Source: a virus (taxonomy: Duplodnaviria; Caudoviricetes). From it: DNA of 29,230 nucleotides. Numbering within the stretch: the stretch's first letter is position 1; every line of letters starts with the position of its first letter. Both the position numbers and the translations under genes were made by a program. Below the pieces are notes generated by a model that did no database searches, was not told where the DNA came from, and saw only the letters and a list, made by a program, of their open reading frames with translations. The stretch spans positions 1 through 29,230 of IMG/VR virus record IMGVR_UViG_3300033067_000583. The stretch is one strand, 5' to 3'. Of this stretch, positions 1 to 10,153 are shown in pieces.

Positions 1-35
1 AAAAATTTGACAGTCGTTGTGAACAGACTAGGCTC

Positions 36-122
36 TTACGGATTGACTTGAGTAAATTGTCGTGTGGTGAGTAAGGCTGCTGTCACGGAACGGGCGGCTA
101 AATTGATTGAATCATTTGCCAT
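36..122 (-). CDS. possible 28-aa peptide (MANDSINLAARSVTAALLTTRQFTQVNP)
   Basis: Translated by hand. Lies downstream of the promoter at 155-183 with a purine-rich GGGAAGGG upstream. No recognisable homology. Confidence 0.3.
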   Translation of the reverse strand: MANDSINLAARSVTAALLTTRQFTQVNP

Positions 123-154
123 TCATTAAGCCCTTCCCGACTGTCTAAGTATAT

Positions 155-183
155 ATTATACAGCGATTGGGGTCGAGATTCAA
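155..183 (-). promoter_or_regulatory. sigma70-type promoter
   Basis: Minus strand TTGAAT-17 bp-TATAAT. Confidence 0.65.
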
Positions 184-214
184 GATTAAATTTCTGGACC
201 CTCAACCGCCATAA

Positions 215-526
215 TCAGCCCAGCTTGGCCACCAGTGCTTCCAGCACGTCGTGGTTGGCCTTTTCCAGCGATTCAAACACTTCTGGGGCCACACCGCAAC
301 GCTGTGCAAGTTGGTCCACCAGGTCTGCTTTACGCACGCGGTGTTGGCCGGTGGCACGGGTTTTAGCCACGTACACGCCTTCACGTGCAAGCTTGGCGAC
401 CACGCTGCGAGTGGTTTTGCCCAGGCGAGTGGCCAGTGCCTCCACGGTTTCACCAGCTTGGTAGCCGGCGACGAGTTCCAGGGTTTGGGCTGGGGTGTAG
501 TTGGTTTTGGTAGCTTCAGTCATCAT
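215..526 (-). CDS. T5 A2-like HTH DNA-binding protein, paralogue 1 (~103 aa)
   Basis: Start reassigned to ATG 526 (or 523) after AAGGAC RBS. NYTP..VEALATRLGKTTRSVVAKLAREGVY..RKADLV..ESLEKAN resembles T5 A2 as recalled and aligns with 1667..1987 and 6233..6556. Confidence 0.75.
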   Translation of the reverse strand: MMTEATKTNYTPAQTLELVAGYQAGETVEALATRLGKTTRSVVAKLAREGVYVAKTRATGQHRVRKADLVDQLAQRCGVAPEVFESLEKANHDVLEALVAKLG

Positions 527-563
527 ATGTCCTTTGGTTGGTTTCTGCGCTGTTAAAGATATT

Positions 564-592
564 ATTATACTGTTAAAAGGGAACATCGTCAA
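564..592 (-). promoter_or_regulatory. sigma70-type promoter for A2 paralogue 1
   Basis: Minus strand TTGACG-17 bp-TATAAT. Confidence 0.75.
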
Positions 593-707
593 ATTCAAAA
601 AATTCGGGGTGTGCGCTGGTATCTTGAAAAATTTCACGAAGTTCTGCGTCCACAAATTCTGAATACTGGTCGTAGTGAAAATCTGCGAAAAAATCGGCTG
701 TTGTCAT
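573..707 (-). CDS. 44-aa acidic/aromatic protein ending in SSB-C-terminus-like FDDVPF
   Basis: ATG 707 after GAAAGGGA RBS with its own promoter (735-763). Sequence MTTADFFADFHYDQYSEFVDAELREIFQDTSAHPEFFEFDDVPF. Confidence 0.65.
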   Translation of the reverse strand: MTTADFFADFHYDQYSEFVDAELREIFQDTSAHPEFFEFDDVPF

Positions 708-734
708 CTGGGATTCCCTTTCATCAATACAATA

Positions 735-763
735 ATTATACAAAAGTTTGGCACTTGCAGCAA
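735..763 (-). promoter_or_regulatory. sigma70-type promoter
   Basis: Minus strand TTGCTG-17 bp-TATAAT. Confidence 0.6.
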
Positions 764-779
764 ATTTAAATTTTCGCAC

Positions 780-976
780 TTGACACGCAAAGGATTACCA
801 CTGTATAATTGGCGCGGCGGGACCCTCAAATTTTTCCACTTGTCAAGGATTACCACTTTGGCGCAGGTGCGCACCTGGTGAGTACTGGAGTACTCATTTT
901 TCATTTTTTATGAGATTTGAATACCAAAGTACACATGTAGGCATTTCGTTCACAATTTCGTCCTGCAAACAAAAGT
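780..976 (+). repeat. antisense promoter-hairpin cassette copy 1 (divergent, with internal duplication)
   Basis: TTGACA(780-785)-18-TATAAT(804-809)-TGGCGC; palindrome CAGGTGCGCACCTG 864-877; hairpin TGAGTAC-tgga-GTACTCA 879-896 plus T-run; TGCAAACAAAAGT 964-976. Confidence 0.75.
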
Positions 977-1003
977 AGTAGTGTTGTTTTTCCGCCACGA
1001 AAA

Positions 1004-1112
1004 TGTAACAGTTTGTAAATTTCCTTGACACGGGCGAAAATTATGTGGTATAATTTTGGCGCAGCAAAGTAATACTTTTGTTTTCAATTCTATCCGAAAA
1101 CAAAAGTATTAC
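1004..1112 (+). repeat. antisense promoter-hairpin cassette copy 2
   Basis: TGTAACAGTTTGTAA 1004-1018; TTGACA(1025-1030)-18-TATAAT(1049-1054)-TTTGGCGC; perfect 17-bp hairpin 1069-1112. Confidence 0.85.
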
Positions 1113-1131
1113 AATTTATTTTGGGCAAAAT

Positions 1132-1156
1132 AAAACCCCGATTATCTCGGGGTTTT
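1132..1156. terminator. bidirectional intrinsic terminator
   Basis: AAAACCCCGA-ttatc-TCGGGGTTTT, between cassette 2 and the stop of the convergent gene. Confidence 0.75.
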
Positions 1157-1160
1157 AAAG

Positions 1161-1412
1161 TTAATCTTGAATTAATGCGGATCTGGGGATTTTAATTAAT
1201 CCAGCCAGATAATCAATTTCCCATTCATAATGCTGGAATACCTCATAATCATAGTCGCCAGTAAATTCCAGCATATAATCGGCGGCTCGATTAATATAAT
1301 CGGGGCGGATTTTCTCAAATGTCCAGCCATTATAATCTTGTGGATTAATTCCTATTTGAGCAAATGTCAGAATCAGGGGTTTATCGGCAAATGAGGGCAA
1401 ATTGAAAAGCAT
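1161..1412 (-). CDS. hypothetical protein (83 aa)
   Basis: ORF with AAAGGA RBS, abutting the upstream ORF (TAAATG). Confidence 0.75.
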   Translation of the reverse strand: MLFNLPSFADKPLILTFAQIGINPQDYNGWTFEKIRPDYINRAADYMLEFTGDYDYEVFQHYEWEIDYLAGLIKIPRSALIQD

Positions 1413-1595
1413 TTATTTTCCTTTCAGAGTGTTTTTAATAACATTAAACAGAAAAAATCCCGCCATGCCAACCCAAAAACCAGGAATTTGATATTGTGCA
1501 TATCCAATGGCTTCGATAAAGTAATTGTAAACAAAATACAAAATCGGATAAACCAGAAAATATGTTCCGAAAATCGCGCCGATAATATGTGCCAT
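1413..1595 (-). CDS. small two-helix membrane protein (60 aa)
   Basis: AAGGA RBS; two hydrophobic segments. Confidence 0.75.
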   Translation of the reverse strand: MAHIIGAIFGTYFLVYPILYFVYNYFIEAIGYAQYQIPGFWVGMAGFFLFNVIKNTLKGK

Positions 1596-1616
1596 TTTAT
1601 TTCCTTTTGAAAAAAT

Positions 1617-1666
1617 CCTATTATAAGGGAGATTATCCCTTATAATAGGGCTTTCGCCCTATTATA
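1617..1666 (-). other. overlapping alternative hairpins in the intergenic region
   Basis: 11-bp stem 1641-1666 (GAAA loop on the minus strand) overlaps a 14-bp stem 1617-1649. Confidence 0.65.
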
Positions 1667-1987
1667 TCAGATTGGCTTAGAATTTGCCAATGCGGAAAAG
1701 ATTTTTTCCAATGCCGTTTTATTGGCTTTTGTCAGGCTTTCAGTTTCAGCCTCTGTCAGTTTCAGAATCGCGCCGATTGCATCGGCGTGAGCGTCTTTTT
1801 TCACAACTGGAGCGCCAGTTTTAGAAACGTAAGTTTTAGCTTTGTAAACGCCCTCGCGTGAGAGTTTGGCAACAATCGAACGAACGGATTTACCCAATTC
1901 GTTTGCAATTTGCTCGGTTGTCACGCCTGCGACATAATCGGCCACCATTTTGGTGGTTTGCTCGGGAGTGTAGTTAATAGTTTTCAT
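1667..1987 (-). CDS. T5 A2-like HTH DNA-binding protein, paralogue 2 (106 aa)
   Basis: Start reassigned to ATG 1987 (GAAAGG RBS). NYTPEQT..IANELGKSVRSIVAKLSREGVY..KKDAHAD..ESLTKANK. Confidence 0.8.
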   Translation of the reverse strand: MKTINYTPEQTTKMVADYVAGVTTEQIANELGKSVRSIVAKLSREGVYKAKTYVSKTGAPVVKKDAHADAIGAILKLTEAETESLTKANKTALEKIFSALANSKPI

Positions 1988-2023
1988 TTTTAGCCTTTCG
2001 TGCTGTGGTGTGTTGAAGTCTCT

Positions 2024-2052
2024 ATTATACATGGGCAAATCAGAAAAAACAA
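2024..2052 (-). promoter_or_regulatory. sigma70-type promoter for A2 paralogue 2
   Basis: Minus strand TTGTTT-17 bp-TATAAT. Confidence 0.6.
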
Positions 2053-2071
2053 GCCAGTGGGCAAAATAAAT

Positions 2072-2193
2072 TGTAACAGTTGCCAGAAATAAATTGTAAC
2101 AAACCCCAAAAAATTTGCAGTTTTTGCTTGACACGGGCCAAAATTATATGATATAATTTTGGCGCAAAATTGAATACCGGAGTATTCAATTTT
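2072..2193 (+). repeat. antisense promoter-hairpin cassette copy 3
   Basis: TGTAAC at 2072 and 2095; TTGACA(2128-2133)-18-TATAAT(2152-2157); 13-bp-arm palindrome 2137-2163; hairpin AAAATTGAATAC-cgga-GTATTCAATTTT 2166-2193 followed by more Ts. Confidence 0.85.
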
Positions 2194-2210
2194 TTCTGAG
2201 AACCTGAGTA

Positions 2211-2426
2211 TTAAAAAAAGTTGTTGTAAATACCTAAAAGGTTTGCGGCAAAAAATGTACCATTAAGTACACCAAGCGCTTTGTCTCGCTTGACCCAGGC
2301 CACGGTCAGCCAAGCGGCAGAACCAAAAGTAAACAAAACATAGCCGATTTTAAACATTGCGCTTGCAACTGCAAACGAACCAAGAATACTTACAAAAGTA
2401 CCGAACCAAGAAACAAAAGTAATCAT
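2211..2426 (-). CDS. small three-helix membrane protein (71 aa)
   Basis: Three hydrophobic segments; ATGA overlap with the upstream SprT-like gene. Confidence 0.75.
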   Translation of the reverse strand: MITFVSWFGTFVSILGSFAVASAMFKIGYVLFTFGSAAWLTVAWVKRDKALGVLNGTFFAANLLGIYNNFF

Positions 2427-2803
2427 TTTCGGGAAATCTCCATTGTGTGATAGGGGTTAGGCTCAAGCCCATAGTTTACCATAATTTCGCACCATTTTTC
2501 GCCGTGGCCGCAAATTTTTTCTGACTCGCCAAACAAGTTAAAATCGGCTTGGTGAATAATCTCATGCGGAAGTATTACATCCATCATGTAATTGAAACAT
2601 TTGGTATTAGCCGCAAAGAATTTGTAACCCATTTGTATGCGGTTTTCATGCTGAAAACATTGTCCAGCGCAACGCCAAAAGTAAGGGTTAAGTTCTATCT
2701 TTGGCTCATTGTAGTGAACCAAAGGTGTATATAATTCGCAAAGTGAATCCCAAATCATTACAGTTTCAAGTTTCAGGTGTTTGATTAAGGCTTTTTTGTC
2801 CAT
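2423..2803 (-). CDS. SprT-like zinc metalloprotease, paralogue 1
   Basis: RCAG..ILPHEIIH..GHGEKW matches the SprT-type HEXXH...HGxxW motif. Confidence 0.8.
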   Translation of the reverse strand: MDKKALIKHLKLETVMIWDSLCELYTPLVHYNEPKIELNPYFWRCAGQCFQHENRIQMGYKFFAANTKCFNYMMDVILPHEIIHQADFNLFGESEKICGHGEKWCEIMVNYGLEPNPYHTMEISRK

Positions 2804-2871
2804 GCCACAATTCTATCACAAAAAGGTGTTGTTTTTTAAACACACACAAAAAATAAGTTATTGAAAAAAGC

Positions 2872-2958
2872 TTGACACGCCCACAATTTATATGATAAAA
2901 TTGGCGCGCCCGCAAACAAAAGTATTCATTTTGCAATGTAACGCTTTTGTTTGCAAAC
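2872..2958 (+). repeat. antisense promoter-hairpin cassette copy 4
   Basis: TTGACA(2872-2877)-18-TAAAAT(2896-2901)-TGGCGC; 11-bp stem GCAAACAAAAG/CTTTTGTTTGC 2912-2954 enclosing TATTCATTT. Confidence 0.8.
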
Positions 2959-2960
2959 GC

Positions 2961-2984
2961 AAAAAAGCCCCGAAGGGCTTTTTT
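2961..2984. terminator. bidirectional intrinsic terminator
   Basis: AAAAAAGCCC-cgaa-GGGCTTTTTT (UUCG loop on the minus strand). Confidence 0.85.
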
Positions 2985-3231
2985 ATTTTCGCGGATTAAT
3001 TTTATAATAGGCGATAATCGAAATAAATATAATGTTGGCCGTATAATTAAAGATTAATGGCCAATGCCATTTTGGGATAATATAAACAATTGTAAATAAT
3101 TCTCCCACGCCCCACATAATTAAAAATCCCCATGTTAATCCGTCAGATTTTCCAGTTTTCCAAGATTCAATGGCCTGAGGTAATCCGCAAAATGCCAACA
3201 AAATCCCGCCAATCCAGCCAATATATTCCAT
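2983..3231 (-). CDS. PQ-loop/SemiSWEET-family membrane protein
   Basis: IGWIGGILLAFCGLPQAIESWKTGKSDGLT with PQ motif, three TM helices and Asn in TM3; GGAG RBS. Confidence 0.8.
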   Translation of the reverse strand: MEYIGWIGGILLAFCGLPQAIESWKTGKSDGLTWGFLIMWGVGELFTIVYIIPKWHWPLIFNYTANIIFISIIAYYKINPRK

Positions 3232-3248
3232 TTGATTATCTCCAGATA

Positions 3249-3268
3249 ATCGGGGATTTCTCCCCGAT
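3249..3268 (-). terminator. stem-loop after the exonuclease gene
   Basis: ATCGGGGA-tttc-TCCCCGAT (GAAA loop on the minus strand); weak U-tract. Confidence 0.5.
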
Positions 3269-3273
3269 ATTAA

Positions 3274-3972
3274 TTAAGCCGCTTTAAAGTGATCTTTAAC
3301 CTGAAATTGTTTCCAATTATATGGGGTCATTTTCTCGCGCCAATCGCGCTTATTTACAATGGCCTGCAAAATCGGCAATTCAAAATCACGGGCATCTTCA
3401 AGGGCAGTATGAGGCTCGATTTTAAATTCACCATCAATAAACCCGCAAACAGATTCCGCAGTGGTGGAAAATGTCATATTGTGATTAACTGTGGGCTTAT
3501 TAAAAAGGTGATTATCCAAAACAAATTGACGATATTTGCGAGAATTGCAAATATTACCAATAGCCGCTTGCCACAAACAAAATTTATTTGTGAAACCGGT
3601 CAAATCAATATCAGTATTTTGGCATTTATCCAAGTCAAAAGCCAGATTATATGCAGTCAAAATCGGGTCATATTTACCAATGGCTTGATTGATCCATTTA
3701 TTTACCGCATTAACTGAGGCCAGCATACGAGTGCCATTATCAAGCATTTTGATATAATTGGCTTTTCGTTTTTCCAAACCAGCATATCCCCAAATATCAT
3801 TGGCTTTTTTATCGTGGAACAATTCAAAATTATTATAATGGCCATTAATCAAAACCGCGCATTGATTGTGAATCTTGCCTTGACGGTCAACGATAATGAT
3901 GGCAAAATCGGCCACGGTGTTTTCGATTGTGGTTTCAGTGTCGAGAATTGCGAAGAATTGTTTTTTAGCCAT
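3274..3972 (-). CDS. DEDDh (DnaQ-like) 3'-5' exonuclease (232 aa)
   Basis: Start reassigned to ATG 3972 (MAKKQFFAILDTETT). ExoI LDTET, ExoII YNLAFD, ExoIII HTALEDA. Confidence 0.85.
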   Translation of the reverse strand: MAKKQFFAILDTETTIENTVADFAIIIVDRQGKIHNQCAVLINGHYNNFELFHDKKANDIWGYAGLEKRKANYIKMLDNGTRMLASVNAVNKWINQAIGKYDPILTAYNLAFDLDKCQNTDIDLTGFTNKFCLWQAAIGNICNSRKYRQFVLDNHLFNKPTVNHNMTFSTTAESVCGFIDGEFKIEPHTALEDARDFELPILQAIVNKRDWREKMTPYNWKQFQVKDHFKAA

Positions 3973-4092
3973 TTTGTTTCCAAATACCGGAACCGCCGGA
4001 TTGTCGCGGATGCCGCATTGTTTGCGGCATGGATGTATTATAACCCAGTTTTTGCCCATTGTGCGGGTTTTTTGCAAATTCCCAAAAAATAA

Positions 4093-4234
4093 AGTGTAAC
4101 AAACCGCCGACATTGTTACAATTAAATGTGTTGTTTTTAGAGGAAAAGGCTTGACACGGGCAAATATTATATAGTATAATATTGGCGCAGTTTTGCAAAC
4201 CAAAGTATTCATTTTTGGTTTGCAAACAAAAGTG
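4093..4234 (+). repeat. antisense promoter-hairpin cassette copy 5
   Basis: TGTAACAAACCGCC..CATTGTTACA; TTGACA(4151-4156)-18-TATAAT(4175-4180)-ATTGGCGC; 13-bp hairpin 4192-4226 with loop GTATTCATT; CAAACAAAAGTG abuts the stop of the convergent gene. Confidence 0.9.
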
Positions 4235-4390
4235 TTATTTTATGCCATATTTTCTTTTTGTTTCATTAATGGCCAATTTTAATTCTCCCCTATATTCATT
4301 ATATAAATGTTTTTGTCCAACAATAAAAAATATAATAGTGTATATTGGAATCAATAACATATTAAGCCAAAATTTAATGCGATTAATCAT
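4235..4390 (-). CDS. 51-aa single-pass membrane protein
   Basis: Translated by hand: MINRIKFWLNMLLIPIYTIIFFIVGQKHLYNEYRGELKLAINETKRKYGIK; AAGGA RBS. Confidence 0.65.
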   Translation of the reverse strand: MINRIKFWLNMLLIPIYTIIFFIVGQKHLYNEYRGELKLAINETKRKYGIK

Positions 4391-4405
4391 TTTATTTCCT
4401 TGATT

Positions 4406-4432
4406 ATATAATCCCCGAAGGGATTATATTTT
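4406..4432. terminator. stem-loop/terminator after the HAD gene
   Basis: ATATAATCCC-cgaa-GGGATTATAT followed by Ts on the plus strand. Confidence 0.6.
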
Positions 4433-4907
4433 AGTGGCCTTGTTTTGAAGGAACATAAACCCCGCGAATATTGAAACGGTCACAAACCGCTTTCAAATAA
4501 GTGGTATTATCTTCATAAAAAGTAAATTCAGCATCCTTGAAATTCTTGAGATTAAAGAATTTAGCCAAGCCAGCGATTTTCAATTTACCGCCTGAAGTAG
4601 TATCGCCGTCAACCCGTGAGATAATATAATCAGGCTCACCCAAAACCGTTTTAATAAATTCATTATCGGCATCACGCAAAACACGGGCAGTAGCGATAAT
4701 CACAAAAGTATTATCGTCAGCCAAATCAGCCCGATATTGTGCGGCCAATGGCAAAAGGGAATCATCCATTGCGCGGTATTCATTTTCGCGCCAGTAGTTC
4801 AAATCAATACGTTCGCCATTTTCGTCAACAATGGTACGATAGCGGTGAAGTGAACACACAATAGTACCATCCATGTCGTAAATTGAAACTTTAGTAATCT
4901 TTGCCAT
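4431..4907 (-). CDS. HAD-superfamily phosphatase (nucleotidase/PNK 3'-phosphatase type)
   Basis: Motif I YDMDGT, motif II ATAR, motif III Lys, motif IV YEDN; AAGGA RBS. Context recalls T5 dmp, but orthology is unverified. Confidence 0.8.
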   Translation of the reverse strand: MAKITKVSIYDMDGTIVCSLHRYRTIVDENGERIDLNYWRENEYRAMDDSLLPLAAQYRADLADDNTFVIIATARVLRDADNEFIKTVLGEPDYIISRVDGDTTSGGKLKIAGLAKFFNLKNFKDAEFTFYEDNTTYLKAVCDRFNIRGVYVPSKQGH

Positions 4908-4986
4908 TTTAGAACATCCTTGTTCGTTGTCGATGAATGAATTATACCCGCAATTTTCCCGATTGTCCCCAATTTCCGCAAAAAGA

Positions 4987-5127
4987 AGTGTAACAAACCG
5001 CCCCCATTGTTACAATTAAATGTGTTGTATTTATGCAAAACCCCTTGACACGCCCAAATATTATATGCTATAATATTGGCGCAAAATGAGAAACAAAAGT
5101 TCTCATTTTGGGTTGCAAACAAAAGTG
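4987..5127 (+). repeat. antisense promoter-hairpin cassette copy 6
   Basis: Near-copy of cassette 5 upstream; TTGACA(5045-5050)-18-TATAAT(5069-5074)-ATTGGCGC; 11-bp hairpin 5082-5110; CAAACAAAAGTG abuts the stop at 5128. Confidence 0.9.
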
Positions 5128-5460
5128 TTATTCTAAGTCAACCTCCGGAATATAAACCTCACGCAAACCAAAAGCCTTTTCCATTTTGCGCGCATATTTA
5201 ATAAACTTGGGCCCATGTGTTTCATGCGCCTTGTTTTCTTCTTGCCACGCATGGATTAGCTCATGGGCAATTAGTACATCCAAATCACGGGTATTATCTT
5301 TGTAATATACCGTAATCAAATGTTCTTTGAGTTTGCCGGTTTTGTCAGAATATTCAGGCTCATATTCGGCATCGGCCCATTTATTTTTACGGGTAATGAT
5401 TCGCAGATTCACGGGCTTTTTTAAACCCAAGAATTTAATATATTCATATAAATTTTTCAT
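5128..5460 (-). CDS. SprT-like zinc metalloprotease, paralogue 2 (110 aa)
   Basis: LIAHELIHAWQ..THGPKF; start 5460 by ATGA coupling with the upstream ORF. Confidence 0.8.
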   Translation of the reverse strand: MKNLYEYIKFLGLKKPVNLRIITRKNKWADAEYEPEYSDKTGKLKEHLITVYYKDNTRDLDVLIAHELIHAWQEENKAHETHGPKFIKYARKMEKAFGLREVYIPEVDLE

Positions 5461-5549
5461 TTTGAAAACCATCCAATCAATGCAATTTTAATTCCCACAA
5501 AAGCAATAAAGCCAACAACATAAGCCAAAAGCAATTCATATTCTGTCAT
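5457..5549 (-). CDS. 30-aa membrane peptide
   Basis: MTEYELLLAYVVGFIAFVGIKIALIGWFSK; tightly packed between neighbouring ORFs. Confidence 0.6.
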   Translation of the reverse strand: MTEYELLLAYVVGFIAFVGIKIALIGWFSK

Positions 5550-5550
5550 A

Positions 5551-5682
5551 TTATGCCCCTGTCATCATTGCAAAATAATCCTCAAATTCCCCATCTGTCC
5601 AAACCCATGCAGGGCACATATTCATGAGGGCATCATAATATGCGCCTGACATATTCCAAACGATGTAAGTATTTGAGTTCAT
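5551..5682 (-). CDS. 43-aa hypothetical protein
   Basis: MNSNTYIVWNMSGAYYDALMNMCPAWVWTDGEFEDYFAMMTGA; 1-nt gaps to neighbouring ORFs. Confidence 0.6.
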   Translation of the reverse strand: MNSNTYIVWNMSGAYYDALMNMCPAWVWTDGEFEDYFAMMTGA

Positions 5683-5683
5683 T

Positions 5684-5818
5684 TTAACGGTCTTTCAATC
5701 GTTTCATTATAGCAACAAACCAAGGTTTGTCAAACAATTCTTTGAGCCGTTGCTCTGGGTTGTACCATTCGCCAGTCTTACGGTCTTGAACCAATTGGGG
5801 TGTTTGTTTGTTCGTCAT
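5684..5818 (-). CDS. 44-aa hypothetical protein, probably leaderless
   Basis: MTNKQTPQLVQDRKTGEWYNPEQRLKELFDKPWFVAIMKRLKDR; TGaTATAAT lies 6 nt before the ATG. Confidence 0.6.
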   Translation of the reverse strand: MTNKQTPQLVQDRKTGEWYNPEQRLKELFDKPWFVAIMKRLKDR

Positions 5819-5899
5819 GTATGTATTATATCAGGGCGGCAAGCATTTCATCATTGTATTTATCAATCGCAGTCATTAATAAAATCAATCGCAAAACCC

Positions 5900-5978
5900 T
5901 TGACACGGGCCAATTATACGTGGTATAATTGGCGCCTCTGGAAACGAAAGTATTCATTTCCAGAGTGCAAACAAAAGG
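5900..5978 (+). repeat. antisense promoter-hairpin cassette copy 7
   Basis: TTGACA(5900-5905)-18-TATAAT(5924-5929)-TGGCGC; 11-bp-arm palindrome 5909-5933; hairpin 5936-5965; TGCAAACAAAAGG abuts the stop at 5979. Confidence 0.85.
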
Positions 5979-6167
5979 TTACATATTCTCAATCGTGTAG
6001 GTGGTCTTGCCAGTCACGCGAACGGGCACGCCACGGAACCATTCGACAGTTTCACAAGTCACAGTCTCATCAGAGTTCGCCCACAGTTCCCGAATCACGC
6101 CGTCCACATCCTCACCAGTTGCCCAAAAGTCCTCACCATAGGCATTTTCAAATTTACCGATCAGCAT
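5979..6167 (-). CDS. hypothetical acidic protein (62 aa)
   Basis: GGAG RBS; extended -10 TGaTATAAT near 6190. Confidence 0.7.
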   Translation of the reverse strand: MLIGKFENAYGEDFWATGEDVDGVIRELWANSDETVTCETVEWFRGVPVRVTGKTTYTIENM

Positions 6168-6232
6168 TTCATTCTCCAGTTAAAAAACAATTATATCACA
6201 GAAAATGCAGGGGCCAAAGCCCCTACAATCTA

Positions 6233-6556
6233 TCAGGTCTTTTCAGCCTTGATGAAATCAGCAATGGCTTTCAATGCTGTTTTGTTGGCCTTGGTCAGCG
6301 AATCAGCATCAGCTTCGCCCATGCCCAATGCCTGGGCAATGTAGTCTGCGAATTCGTCCTTTTTAACCACGGCTTCGCCAGTCTTGGTTTTGTAGGTCTT
6401 GGCAGTGTACACCTTTTCGCGTGACAGTTTCGCAACCACAGAGCGCACAGTCTTGCCCAATACCTCAGCGATAGCCTCAACAGTTGCACCGGCTTGATAG
6501 TCGGCAACCATTTTAGCGGTCATCTCAGGGGTGTAGTTTACAGTTTTTGCAGTCAT
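6233..6556 (-). CDS. T5 A2-like HTH DNA-binding protein, paralogue 3 (~107 aa)
   Basis: Start 6556 (or 6559) after GGAG. NYTPEMTAKMVADYQAG..IAEVLGKTVRSVVAKLSREKVY..KKDEFAD..DSLTKANKTAL is very similar to paralogue 2. Confidence 0.8.
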   Translation of the reverse strand: MTAKTVNYTPEMTAKMVADYQAGATVEAIAEVLGKTVRSVVAKLSREKVYTAKTYKTKTGEAVVKKDEFADYIAQALGMGEADADSLTKANKTALKAIADFIKAEKT

Positions 6557-6658
6557 CATTTTCTCCAGGTTAATCAGGGTTTCATCACAAGTGTGAAGTA
6601 TATCACGAAAGGGGTGGCGATGCAAGCGGCAAAGCCAAGCGCATCAAAAAGTTCACGT

Positions 6659-6823
6659 TTACTCATACCAAACATCTCCAACAATCTTGCCGTCAATTAT
6701 AACATAATACGCGGTCATATGTGCCACGCGTGCAGAAAAATTCTCTGCGTCATGTTGCACAATGCTATGCGCTTTTGGATCCTTTGCAAGGATCGCTTCA
6801 GTTGCTTGTTGTTTCGTTGTCAT
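6659..6823 (-). CDS. 54-aa hypothetical protein, probably leaderless
   Basis: MTTKQQATEAILAKDPKAHSIVQHDAENFSARVAHMTAYYVIIDGKIVGDVWYE; TTGACC-16-TATAAT lies 6 nt before the ATG. Confidence 0.6.
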   Translation of the reverse strand: MTTKQQATEAILAKDPKAHSIVQHDAENFSARVAHMTAYYVIIDGKIVGDVWYE

Positions 6824-6987
6824 GGGTTTATTATATCACGCTTTTGCAATCGGTCAACAAGATTTTAGGATTGTTACAAACTGTTACACAATAGCTATTT
6901 GGTTCACAAATCGCTTTGAAAACAAAAGTACACATACTAGGGGGGATAGTAGACTTGAGTATTCACACACGCCACGGGACCCACCCA

Positions 6988-7103
6988 CACGCGGCCTATT
7001 TAAGAAAAATCCGAAAACACTTTGGGTGCCAACATCGACCCTAAACCGCAACAACTTAGCCGGTGCCTAACGGTGTGACAGCACGCGGCCTATTTAAGAA
7101 AAA
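6988..7103. repeat. perfect 22-bp direct repeat CACGCGGCCTATTTAAGAAAAA
   Basis: Copies at 6988-7009 and 7082-7103 in non-coding DNA upstream of terS. Confidence 0.9.
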
Positions 7104-7205
7104 CCAACGCAAACCGCTTGACCCACAACCACAGCAAATCGACCCCCAACCAACCCAATCCACCCAAACCGTCCCCGATCTCCCCAAGCACACCAAAAAT
7201 CCCAC

Positions 7206-7235
7206 TTGCCCCCACCGAGCCCCCTGTGGTATAAT
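7206..7235 (+). promoter_or_regulatory. sigma70-type promoter for the terminase operon
   Basis: TTGCCC-18-TATAAT with extended -10 TG; AGAGGA RBS follows. Confidence 0.65.
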
Positions 7236-7256
7236 CGACCCAAAGAGGAATAATCT

Positions 7257-7730
7257 ATGCAAAATTTACCTGCTGAAACGCTACAAATTGCCCCGGAAGC
7301 CCTGGAAGTGGCAAATTGCTACCTGCAACTACAGGATGCTCGCCGTGTTGCCGACGAACTAGACTTGCCACCAACACTGGTTACTGAAATACTTGGCCGC
7401 CGCGAGGTCAAGTCGTACATCGACCACGTATTCATGGACACCGGATTCAACAACAAGTTTGAAATGCGTGCGGCTATGGATGCGCTTATTAAGAAGAAAT
7501 TCCAGGAGCTGCACGAGTCCGATACGGGATCAACCAAGGATATTGCCGAACTACTCCAGATTTCGCACAAAATGTCAATGGACTTGCTAGACCGTGAAAT
7601 CCAGCTGGAAAAGATCCGAGCAGGCAATGGTGGCCCACAAAAACAAGTTAACGTGCAGATTAACGAAGGCCTAGATGGGTCGAAGTATTCTAGTCTAATT
7701 TCGCGCCTGATTAGCGGGGACGGAGTTTAA
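7257..7730 (+). CDS. terS: terminase small subunit (T5-like)
   Basis: N-terminal HTH (RRVADELDLP), central helices, QVNVQIN tail; directly upstream of terL with TAATG overlap. Confidence 0.85.
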   Translation: MQNLPAETLQIAPEALEVANCYLQLQDARRVADELDLPPTLVTEILGRREVKSYIDHVFMDTGFNNKFEMRAAMDALIKKKFQELHESDTGSTKDIAELLQISHKMSMDLLDREIQLEKIRAGNGGPQKQVNVQINEGLDGSKYSSLISRLISGDGV

Positions 7731-9016
7731 TGTTAACTATCTCTCGCCCAGATGTAGAGCGTGATGCTATTACGGAATTTCCTGCCGACACACGCTTTAT
7801 CAAGCTGCCTATCACCAATTACCTAAAGCTGCTAGGCATTTACGAGTCGATTAACCGACCCCAAATCGCACTAATCAACGCAGTCAACGATCCCAAGTAC
7901 CGTTTTGTATGCGCTGCGCTTGCGCGCCGACTTGGCAAAACCTACATAGCCAACGTGGTGGGTCAACTGGTGAGCCTGGTACCTGGTAGCAATGTCTTAA
8001 TCATGTCGCCAAACTATAACCTGAGTGGCATTTCGTTTGAGCTACAACGCAAACTCATCAAGCACTTTGATCTCGAAGTGTCACGTGATAACTTAAAGGA
8101 TAAAATAATTGAACTCTCAAATGGTTCAACTATTCGTATGGGCAGCCTTAGTACTGTCGATAGTTGTGTGGGTCGGAGCTACGATCTTATTATATTTGAT
8201 GAAGCAGCGCTTGGGTCAGACGGAGAAGCCGCCTTTAACGTTGCCCTCCGACCAACCCTAGATAAACCGAATTCAAAAGCAATTTTTATTAGTACCCCTC
8301 GCGGTCGCAACAACTGGTTTAGTCAATTTTGGCAACGTGGCTTTGATCCCAAGTTCCCGGAATGGGTTAGTTTACAAGCGGACTATTCGGAGAACACTCG
8401 CATGGCCGAGTCGGATGTGGCTGAGGCTCGCAAGTCGATGAGCAAAGCCGAATTTGAGCAAGAATACTTGGCCTCGTTTACAGTGTTTGAGGGTCAAATT
8501 TACTCGCTAGCTGAGGGGGATGTGTGTGAACCCCCTCCGGATCTACGTGGCGAGGCTATTGCTGGCTGCGACCCAGGATACCGTGACTATACCGCGTTTT
8601 GCGTAATCATTTACGACCAGGTAGGCGACTGCTTTTGGATTGTGGATGAATACCTGGAAAATGAAGCTACCACACAACAGCATGCTGAACGGTTCCTGGA
8701 GCTAATGACTCGTTGGGGTGTGGAAACCGTGTTTATTGATAGTGCTGCCGCACAGTTTGCATCGGACTTGGCTTATATGTACGACATTGCATCGACCAAA
8801 GCCAAAAAAGATGTGCTGCCTGGTATTGCCTATGTGCAGACCCTGGTAGCACAAGGTCGACTAAAAGTCGCACCAAACTGTACACACTGCCTTGCTGTGT
8901 TTGACCAGTATCGCTGGGATACCAAGGAAGGTCTACAGCGCGAGCGTCCAAAGCATGATGACTACTCGCACATGGCTGATGCTATCAGATACGCGCTTTA
9001 TACGTACACCTTGTAA
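7730..9016 (+). CDS. terL: terminase large subunit
   Basis: Walker A ARRLGKT, Walker B LIIFDEAA, coupling motif ISTPRG, nuclease GCDPG..SHMADAIRY. Confidence 0.97.
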   Translation: MLTISRPDVERDAITEFPADTRFIKLPITNYLKLLGIYESINRPQIALINAVNDPKYRFVCAALARRLGKTYIANVVGQLVSLVPGSNVLIMSPNYNLSGISFELQRKLIKHFDLEVSRDNLKDKIIELSNGSTIRMGSLSTVDSCVGRSYDLIIFDEAALGSDGEAAFNVALRPTLDKPNSKAIFISTPRGRNNWFSQFWQRGFDPKFPEWVSLQADYSENTRMAESDVAEARKSMSKAEFEQEYLASFTVFEGQIYSLAEGDVCEPPPDLRGEAIAGCDPGYRDYTAFCVIIYDQVGDCFWIVDEYLENEATTQQHAERFLELMTRWGVETVFIDSAAAQFASDLAYMYDIASTKAKKDVLPGIAYVQTLVAQGRLKVAPNCTHCLAVFDQYRWDTKEGLQRERPKHDDYSHMADAIRYALYTYTL

Positions 9017-9579
9017 TTAAAAAGTCGATCCCACCAGCCTAGCTTTTGCAGTCGTTGTAGCTCGGTCTTATGCTCAAAGTAACGATCCTTGAACTCATTG
9101 GTGAGTTTTAGCAGGTCAAGGTAGTCTTGGTCAATAATATAACCATTGCTTTTATACTCTTCCAAGGCTTCTTCAGCTTGTTCTTGCGCCTCTTGTGCTG
9201 CGTTAATTTTGCCCTGCGCCTGGTCAATTAGCTTTAGGTGATCCCAGGTGCACAAGTGTAGCAACTCACGGTTATTGTTGATAAGTTCCGCAATTTCATC
9301 AGTACGCTCCAGTTTTGGATACGTGGTGTTGAGCATATCACCGCACTTAAACTGGTCAATTAACCACTCTTCCATGATATCAATATGATCTTGGTGGCAG
9401 TAGAAGATTGCCTCAGGTTTGGGCAAGCCACATTGATCGTACTCAACTTGCATTGGTCGAGCAGCCTTGCCAGTGGCAAATTTGTTAAAGTGCTGTTTCC
9501 AGCGGGTCTCCAAGTCTAGGGATTTACCAATGTAAAACTTGCCACTTGAAAAGGTTAGGCGGTAGATTCCAGAAGCCAT
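8998..9579 (-). CDS. GIY-YIG endonuclease with C-terminal coiled coil
   Basis: SGIYRL..FYIGKS..RWKQH..E..LN; GAGG RBS; own promoter. Confidence 0.85.
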   Translation of the reverse strand: MASGIYRLTFSSGKFYIGKSLDLETRWKQHFNKFATGKAARPMQVEYDQCGLPKPEAIFYCHQDHIDIMEEWLIDQFKCGDMLNTTYPKLERTDEIAELINNNRELLHLCTWDHLKLIDQAQGKINAAQEAQEQAEEALEEYKSNGYIIDQDYLDLLKLTNEFKDRYFEHKTELQRLQKLGWWDRLFNYKVYV

Positions 9580-9721: not shown

Positions 9722-10153
9722 ATGGCCAAGAACACAAATAAACGTATTCCTGTAAAGTGGGTTCGCGACCGAGCGAAAGCAGCATACGATAAAAAGTCCG
9801 AGTGTTTCATTTGCGACAGCACAAAAGACTTAGAACTACACCACCTACATTCGATCACAATACTCTTAGAAACGTGGGCCGACAGAAAAGGTTACGATAT
9901 ATCAACTGACGATGGCATTTTGGCTGTTCGTGACGAATTTATTCAAGAGCATAAAATTGAGCTTTATGACAAGGTTTACACCCTATGTAATCCGCACCAT
10001 GTAGCTCTGCACGCCGTATACGGCAAAGCTCCTGCGGTAGGTTCGGAATTAAAGCAGCAGCGTTGGATTGAATTACAGCGTCAAAAGCACGTTTCAGGTG
10101 AGCGTCAAGTACCCAACTCCAGTTATGGTTCACTATTCTCAAGATTTATATAG
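9722..10153 (+). CDS. HNH-type endonuclease (T5-like nicking/packaging-associated)
   Basis: CFIC..LELHH..TLCNPHHVALH; located between terL and portal as in T5-like phages. Confidence 0.8.
   Translation: MAKNTNKRIPVKWVRDRAKAAYDKKSECFICDSTKDLELHHLHSITILLETWADRKGYDISTDDGILAVRDEFIQEHKIELYDKVYTLCNPHHVALHAVYGKAPAVGSELKQQRWIELQRQKHVSGERQVPNSSYGSLFSRFI

Follow-up and report, generated by a model that had tools for sequence, protein, structure and literature searches.

Backward-facing promoter-hairpin cassettes in a T5-like phage genome as putative multiplied copies of the T5 injection-stop nick module

Introduction

Why would a phage place seven near-consensus promoters, most of them followed by a strong hairpin, so that they point against its own pre-early genes? 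This question is raised by the complete virus record IMGVR_UViG_3300033067_000583 (29,230 nt, hereafter the window), in which seven such cassettes lie on the plus strand between positions 780 and 5981. Judged by its genes, the window is a portion of a T5-like phage genome: terminase, an orthologue of T5.153 (SciA) and portal are encoded on the plus strand from 7257, and a homologue of dmp together with three A2-like genes occupies the minus strand within 1-6900. An earlier note on this DNA interpreted the cassettes mainly as a multi-copy family of non-coding RNAs; our literature search found no paper describing such promoter-hairpin cassettes. The cassettes are a real, conserved DNA module, which looks like multiplied copies of the nick in the T5 injection-stop (iss) region and is probably not a small-RNA family.

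Results

Anatomy and conservation of the cassettes

All seven promoters were reproduced, with TTGACA at 780, 1025, 2128, 2872, 4151, 5045 and 5900, an 18-bp spacer, TATAAT (TAAAAT at 2896) and TGGCGC. The perfect cassette pattern occurs nine times in the window against 0.05 expected, and six of these nine are the described copies. Copy 2 (1025..1158) consists of a promoter at 1025-1054 with a palindrome over its -10 element, a predicted nick at 1058/1059, a 17-bp hairpin at 1069-1112 formed by two inverted dyads, and a bidirectional terminator at 1131-1158. Copy 4 (2872..2986) carries TAAAAT with a compensating left arm, a predicted nick at 2903/2904, a hairpin at about 2912-2954 and a bidirectional terminator at 2961-2985; such terminators follow copies 2 and 4, as had been claimed, and no others. 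The remaining canonical copies run into a convergent gene, and in each a second dyad overlaps its stop codon: copy 3 (2128..2213; predicted nick 2161/2162, 12-bp hairpin 2166-2193, stop at 2211), copy 5 (4151..4237; predicted nick 4184/4185, 13-bp hairpin 4192-4226, stop at 4235), copy 6 (5045..5130; predicted nick 5078/5079, 11-bp hairpin 5082-5110, stop at 5128) and copy 7 (5900..5981; predicted nick 5931/5932, 9-bp hairpin 5936-5965 with a dyad in its loop, stop at 5979). The earlier note had listed only copies 5-7 as ending in a stop codon, which is correct for these three and omits copy 3. Recomputation returned the perfect stems of 17, 12, 13 and 11 bp in copies 2, 3, 5 and 6, and the long stem of copy 4 was seen in the RNA fold; the fold z-scores of copies 2-7 range from -1.5 (copy 3, the weakest) to -9.8. 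Copy 1 (780..815, TTGACA-18-TATAAT, predicted nick 811/812) is atypical: it has no -10 palindrome, it contains a DRD-like word in the spacer, and its fold is no better than chance (z -0.8). No credible plus-strand open reading frame follows the cassettes, the sole one scored next being a 54-codon ATG frame without a Shine-Dalgarno motif.

A pattern scan of viral contigs returned at least 239 stretches, which represent at least 214 distinct copies including the seven of the window. Among the matches listed, the spacer is 18 bp in 211 of 214 copies (17-19 were allowed and ambiguous parses were counted as 18). Every one of ten near-complete records carries 3-7 cassettes, always on one strand, and the reversed control gave none. 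The orientation claimed for the window holds across the family: the next open reading frame is on the opposite strand in 141 of the 154 cassettes with enough flank, its stop codon is no more than 100 nt away in 94 of those, and the median distance from GCGC to the convergent stop codon is 81 nt. In a set of 299 distinct cassettes a terminator follows 94, ending a median of 81 nt past GCGC, and 205 have none; as this set includes loci fetched by window-type motifs, the shares of motifs in it are not family frequencies. The order of the genes between cassettes varies among the window and its relatives G001, G002 and G005.

A palindrome over the -10 element

In copies 2-7 of the window the -10 element lies in a palindrome of its own, separate from the downstream hairpin and not described previously. 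Since it is upstream of any start site, it cannot be part of the proposed small RNA. A perfect stem of at least 7 bp spans the -10 element in 249 of the 299 cassettes (the mean of the spacer-shuffled control was 1.4), each -10 variant is paired with its own reverse complement (25 of 27 for the TAAAAT type, for example), and in 195 of the 249 the last base of the stem falls on the G that precedes GCGC or one position to either side of it (-1, 0 or +1). Folded as DNA the palindrome is weak, from -2.7 to -5.6 kcal/mol in copies 2-7, and by our estimate it would not displace an intact duplex alone and would need help. An alternative explanation as a bidirectional promoter is disfavoured by the covariation of the arms and by the variable length of the loop.

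GGCGC behaves as a predicted nick site

The word at which the palindrome ends was tested for avoidance by synonymous-codon shuffles of the coding DNA of the window and six relatives. In the six relatives pooled, GGCGC is found 79 times on the cassette strand where 216 are expected, and 216 times on the other strand where 189 are expected. Divided by gene orientation, the counts are 58 against 150.9 and 21 against 65.3 expected on the cassette strand, and 92 against 82.1 and 124 against 106.8 on the other. This strand asymmetry ranks first of all 1024 5-mers (-1.63; the runner-up reaches -0.53). The window itself has 4 on the cassette strand (13.6 expected) and 16 on the other (12.7 expected), so that the depletion, confined to the cassette strand and affecting genes of both orientations, is seen in the window and in all six relatives. 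The surviving cassette-strand GGCGC words are spread genome-wide and are mostly preceded by T (G001, G002, G004, G005, G006 and G008); in G005 this is the case at 25 of 28 cassette-strand sites versus 17 of 49 on the other strand.

The ends of assembled contigs point to the same word, nine contigs in all beginning exactly at GCGC on the cassette strand. Among 37 contig 5' ends five lie at GCGC (p ~3e-7), of which four belong to cassettes and the fifth to a secondary GGCGC, and among cassette-proximal contig ends the proportion is 5 of 12 (p ~4e-6). A further set gave 3 of 8, one of these being a contig already counted among the five, with a search pattern that itself required GCGC; with GCGC-free patterns, two of ten upstream contig ends fall at GCGC and one more starts a base earlier. 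A break in the assembly induced by repeats should leave the shared promoter on the contig. At copy 3 the contigs of run X1 are broken and overlap by 9 nt, and at copy 7 their overlap is the ordinary 30 nt. The 20 contig 3' ends gave no readable signal.

The context of the word is constant as well: TG stands ahead of GCGC in all seven copies, at a further site at 860 and in 129 of 131 promoter-bearing matches. GCGC preceded by a purine is what characterizes the T5-type interruption sites, and the annotated nicks of T5 all have it on the terminase strand (5 of 5), in line with the T5 nick consensus given in PMC3517423. Because the terminase genes of the window are on the plus strand, the cassette strand is the terminase-coding strand, which is the one nicked in T5. 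Thus GGCGC behaves as a T5-type nick site, as far as this can be predicted from sequence.

The site at 860 and the T5 injection-stop region

A second GGCGC at 860, just after copy 1, had been overlooked, and it aligns with the iss nick of T5. The stretch 837..867 (plus strand; predicted nick 860/861) shares with the T5 iss nick and with the T5-like record L549 a DRD-like word, four bases and then G/GCGCAGG. The DRD-type word stands directly before the nick in the window (847-860), in G001 and in two further contexts in relatives, and it is absent from copies 2-7. A pattern built from the iss context matched 50 stretches, mostly iss nicks of T5-like records, with members of the cassette family and some unrelated matches besides. 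Downstream of the 861 site two short hairpins follow on the plus strand (863..898), the second of which is a symmetric form of the 16-bp dyad described below.

In T5 the iss nick is likewise followed by a hairpin, and by Fur-, DnaA- and LexA-type boxes. In the T5 sequence (L242:9300-9748, minus strand) we observed several Fur-type boxes and one LexA-type box after the nick, beside the known DnaA boxes; the main text of the Davison preprint (bioRxiv 10.1101/866236) contains no match for Fur, LexA or nick. In L549 (651-710) four tandem 15-mers replace the Fur-type array, and sigma-54-, DnaA- and LexA-type boxes follow. An interchangeable array after the nick may thus be a wider design of T5-like phages, which this lineage would have multiplied and provided with a promoter.

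The likeness to the T5 iss nick (AY543070, 9748/9749; Repeat Region 3 in bioRxiv 10.1101/866236) therefore comprises a purine/GCGC word on the terminase strand, preceded at 4 nt by a DRD-like word (at 860 only in the window), a hairpin and host-protein-type boxes right after the nick, on the side that would enter first, and the presence in the window of a dmp homologue, A2-like genes and the T5.153/SciA orthologue. Contrastingly, T5 has one module per terminal repeat and the window has at least eight copies of the word within 5.2 kb; here it is joined to a consensus promoter whose -10 element is palindromic; the paired DnaA boxes and A1 of T5 were not found here by motif counts and tblastn; and the avoided word is GGCGC here and AGCGC there.

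Hairpins, dyads and protein-binding sites

A perfect stem of at least 8 bp follows GCGC in 230 of the 299 cassettes (1-9 in shuffles) and mostly begins 4-8 nt past the first G of GCGC. The sequence of the hairpin differs by lineage, and between lineages the hairpins are unrelated, not homologous. What several of them contain are known types of protein sites: parS-like sites follow GCGC in 38 of the 299 cassettes, SlmA-type sites in 13 and Fur-like sites in 10, and none of the three was found in 558,610 bp of sequence from six genomes that lies beyond the pre-early blocks. The consensus sequences were those of PMC5450999 (parS) and PMC3020112 (SlmA), and the Fur search pattern was a variant of the forms published in PMC7536154. 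In the G002 lineage the cassettes are filled by a dyad that is found in many further viral contigs too (L626-L750), a cassette being in view at only 21 of 125 loci, which suggests that the dyad is the site of a host protein used by many phages. Other dyads we take to be Zur, IscR, SdhR, PhoB, PhaR, NnrR, sigma-54 and LexA sites, labels that are assigned provisionally.

In the window, the AAACAAAAG box noted in most copies is part of a 16-bp dyad that also exists outside any cassette transcript, at 967 and 6920. Two stand-alone dyads of the AAWAC-N4-GTATT type lie between copies 1 and 2 (918..982), and another, with no cassette promoter upstream, is near the presumed genome end (6917..6935). 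The window's 18-nt core occurs in 33 distinct flanks, in which it may be in the loop, in an arm or partly self-paired, in several pairing registers. In nine of these 33 rows, hand-picked for folding around the core, the flanks covary, with 7 of 10 pairs changed on both sides; the earlier claim of selection on hairpin structure is thereby borne out. Selection acts separately on the hairpin directly after GCGC and on a sequence motif that is independent of pairing, and the fact that the core is kept irrespective of pairing fits a protein site in duplex DNA. The stems are about 93% Watson-Crick, and their wobbles favour the minus strand (106 versus 53 on the plus strand), which is weak evidence because the rows are related.

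Repeats of the TGTAAC/GTTACA type with dyads are present between the divergent promoters at 1004, 2072-2100, 4095-4120, 4989-5014 and 6873-6888; they precede four cassettes, recur close to the presumed end and are likely another operator. Two other ideas were rejected: a self-priming fold-back from the nick had no match in the viral contigs, and reading TGGCGC plus TTGC as a sigma-54 promoter was dismissed by eye, the spacing being one base below the consensus.

Genome setting

The orthologue of T5.153, a candidate nicking enzyme (9722..10153, plus strand; 37% identity, E 2e-30), is located between terminase and portal in the window and is present in all six relatives as well. Several T5-like records label T5.153 as sciA or nicking site-specific endonuclease, which is a database annotation. 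An inserted gene for a GIY-YIG endonuclease (8998-9579) separates the large terminase gene from the sciA orthologue and is antisense to them; G001 has it and G005 does not. The small and large terminase subunits are encoded at 7257..9016 on the plus strand, and the best terminase match is at 49.7%. In the T5 record the terminal repeat starts at the terminase side, and by analogy the DNA near 7000 of the window would enter the cell first. Ahead of the small terminase gene, 6961-7250 is non-coding and C/A-rich, contains a direct repeat of 22 bp (6988 and 7082) and 68 nt that other strains skip, and is a candidate genome end or packaging site.

On the minus strand, the homologue of the T5 pre-early gene dmp is at 4431..4907 (E 2e-11). 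The three A2-like DNA-binding protein paralogues are at 215..526 (phrog_1725, phrog_323), 1667..1987 (profile match) and 6233..6556 (profile match; PF26822 Phage_T5_A2 in 19-22% of cluster members offers a lead); a tblastn search of the phage collection with the A2-like protein gave no match. Relatives have the same three paralogues and one plus-strand copy beyond the pre-early block. A pre-early protein of 232 amino acids (3274-3972) has no Pfam or PHROG match; among the named Atlas clusters it lies closest to RNase T-type exonucleases (0.94-0.95), and it is a possible substitute for the nuclease role of A1. The pre-early genes at 2423-2803, 5128-5472 and 2983-3231 encode two SprT-like proteins and one PQ-loop membrane protein.

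No cultured relative was found when window 1-8000 was compared by blastn with 50,697 phage records. The cassette pattern was tried as a pointer to the host and rejected, as a GTDB scan gave 14 matches scattered over unrelated bins; around G011 the motifs occur at background level, and this group is probably not the host. In G001, the closest relative, ARAGORN predicts a permuted two-piece transfer-messenger RNA with the tag ANDTQFALVA (L225:640-1089), a possible clue to the host.

Discussion

The observed anatomy, conservation and orientation of the cassettes, the strand-specific avoidance of GGCGC, the contig starts at GCGC, the presence of a SciA orthologue and the fit of site 860 to the T5 iss nick lead us to lean, by a modest degree, towards the interpretation that the cassette is a DNA module likely nicked at G/GCGC in the virion, as is T5 DNA, with a hairpin that is likely bound by proteins, and that it probably serves as a barrier at which pre-early transcription stops and the entry of DNA is slowed. 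We consider it highly probable that the SciA orthologue would nick the plus strand at G/GCGC, and likely, if somewhat less firmly so, that proteins of the host or the phage would bind the dyads in double-stranded form, for which the three A2-like paralogues are candidates. The predicted nick lies in the template strand of the pre-early genes and in the non-template strand of the backward promoter. As the plus strand is the template of the minus-strand pre-early genes, a polymerase leaving such a gene would meet the bound proteins, the hairpin, the nick in its template and another polymerase parked at the promoter that faces it. Copies 3, 5, 6 and 7 have no terminator; there the messenger RNA (mRNA) of the minus strand would stop at the nick, and a hairpin lying 2-4 nt from it would close the transcript and guard its 3' end. 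On this step as a whole, a polymerase barrier together with an mRNA end at the nick, we regard the balance as even; a transcription barrier had been among the roles proposed earlier and is supported as one possible role. More tentatively, and by analogy with the single iss module of T5, the array could offer several anchor points for host proteins on the DNA injected first, a step that we hold to be rather doubtful. The short plus-strand RNAs of copies 2 and 4 and the swapping of modules between strains would then be by-products. Whether T5 ejection pauses at nicks is reportedly disputed by later work. Such pauses were reported in vitro (PMC2771126). Nicks in the template are described as inhibiting RNA synthesis (PMC8989532).

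Several points weigh against this interpretation. The nick itself is deduced indirectly, from sequence and from contig starts, some of which may share a sample, and two-step injection is assumed for this phage by analogy. None of the seven cassette sites has the full T5 consensus R/GCGCRGG, whose two matches on the plus strand of the window are at 860 and 28985; T5 itself does not avoid GGCGC (31 against 26.0 expected) and avoids AGCGC mildly (22 against 37.3); and its other nicks lie within genes or beside a terminator. GGCGC also sits at the place of a GC-rich discriminator, which could explain its position in the cassettes, not its avoidance in genes. None of the parS-, SlmA- and Fur-type host sites is found within the cassettes of the window, whose own dyad showed no enrichment in the searched bacterial genomes, a set that probably lay outside the host group. 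DnaA boxes are not enriched either, with 3 in 299 cassettes and 8 in 50,321 bp of pre-early blocks versus 70 in 558,610 bp elsewhere. The excess of minus-strand wobbles is significant in terminator-less copies only, and the classes with and without a terminator show no significant difference (Fisher p 0.46). T5 A1 and A2 gave nothing by tblastn at E 0.05 in seven sequences. Mutants of T5 free of nicks exist, going by the title of a paper, and are said to be viable. The role of the T5 nicks is stated as unknown in PMC3517423. Finally, RNA polymerase can read through nicks, according to PMC8989532; as nicks do not always halt polymerase, the bound proteins and the opposing polymerase would be needed also.

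One could argue that the cassettes are host-gated antisense promoters, in which host repressors just past the start site set antisense transcription or polymerase collision, thereby adjusting the expression of pre-early genes to the state of the host, and any nick is incidental. The near-perfect -35 and -10 elements with their nearly invariant spacer would suit such a device, the dyads are at about +1 to +60, which is the usual position of repressors, and the four terminator-less copies of the window would read into the convergent gene. However, this leaves unexplained the one-strand avoidance of GGCGC, the contigs starting at GCGC and the -10 palindrome that ends there; in addition, parS- and SlmA-type sites are not metabolic sensors, and copies 2 and 4 terminate ahead of any gene. 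Thus we find it unlikely.

A bolder version of the nick-based interpretation is that virion nicks serve as terminators and as a clock: pre-early mRNA would terminate by run-off at the nick, protected by a hairpin, docked host proteins would hold the entering DNA, and the -10 palindrome at the 3' end of the nick would keep the backward promoter off until ligation, whereupon antisense transcription would shut off the pre-early genes. We consider this speculative and quite unlikely; if true, it would give T5-type nicks a function, and one element would explain both pre-early shut-off and the injection pause.

The cassettes also invite comparison with the promoter-early stem-loop (PeSL) cassettes of the T4-type phages RB49 and phi1 (PMC2839356). 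As described there, PeSLs too are multi-copy intergenic sigma-70 promoters with a stem-loop that often overlaps the -10 element; they lie in the most variable region and are likely recombination joints. Unlike our cassettes, they end in a Shine-Dalgarno sequence and a start codon and drive the next gene in sense (PMC2839356), as the earlier note had said. The cassettes mostly face a stop codon, carry a nick-type word and operator-type dyads and, having no sense gene start at their end, are not PeSLs. On that precedent they might nevertheless act mainly as PeSL-like recombination joints, the nick initiating swaps of gene blocks and of hairpin modules among strains. Joints between copies are indeed seen in contigs of other strains, where the promoter of one copy is fused to the hairpin of another or to a new one at or just past GGCGC, and the gene order between cassettes differs, as noted above; however, such joints are expected as a side effect of the shared promoter homology alone, and recombination gives no reason for host-type binding sites, a fixed antisense orientation or homology to the T5 iss nick, which makes this explanation improbable.

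Most improbable is the main idea of the earlier note, a family of short hairpin RNAs acting as protein decoys or anti-defence RNAs: its stems are real and covary and some copies have a terminator at a suitable distance, but two thirds do not (205 of 299), the best match in Rfam 15 has an E value of 0.34 with all 14 matches under the gathering score, the hairpin sequence is not common to the lineages and includes exact DNA sites such as parS, the core is found in differing registers and outside transcripts, the wobbles favour the other strand, and proteins recognize parS-, SlmA- and Fur-type sites in DNA. Of the interpretation given in that note, therefore, the conserved antisense promoter, the selection on the hairpin and the contrast with PeSLs stand, and an RNA family as the main product does not.

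Further nick words are known from phage tf and the phiKMV-like phages. Theirs are likewise short, strand-specific and read by a nickase, with a function stated as unknown; their words differ from ours, and the account of these sites in PMC3517423 describes no promoter-hairpin-operator cassettes around them. The cassettes are best filed as a variant of the T5 iss-nick module with a PeSL-like architecture, and their agreement with the T5 nick consensus is partial.

It has long been an open question why the DNA of T5-like phages is nicked, and likewise what brings the first step of DNA transfer to a halt (bioRxiv 10.1101/866236; PMC3517423). Here an iss-nick module appears to have been copied many times with its parts varied, so that a conserved core becomes readable: a nick word, an adjacent hairpin and interchangeable protein sites. 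The Fur-type array beside the iss nick makes the question testable in T5 itself.

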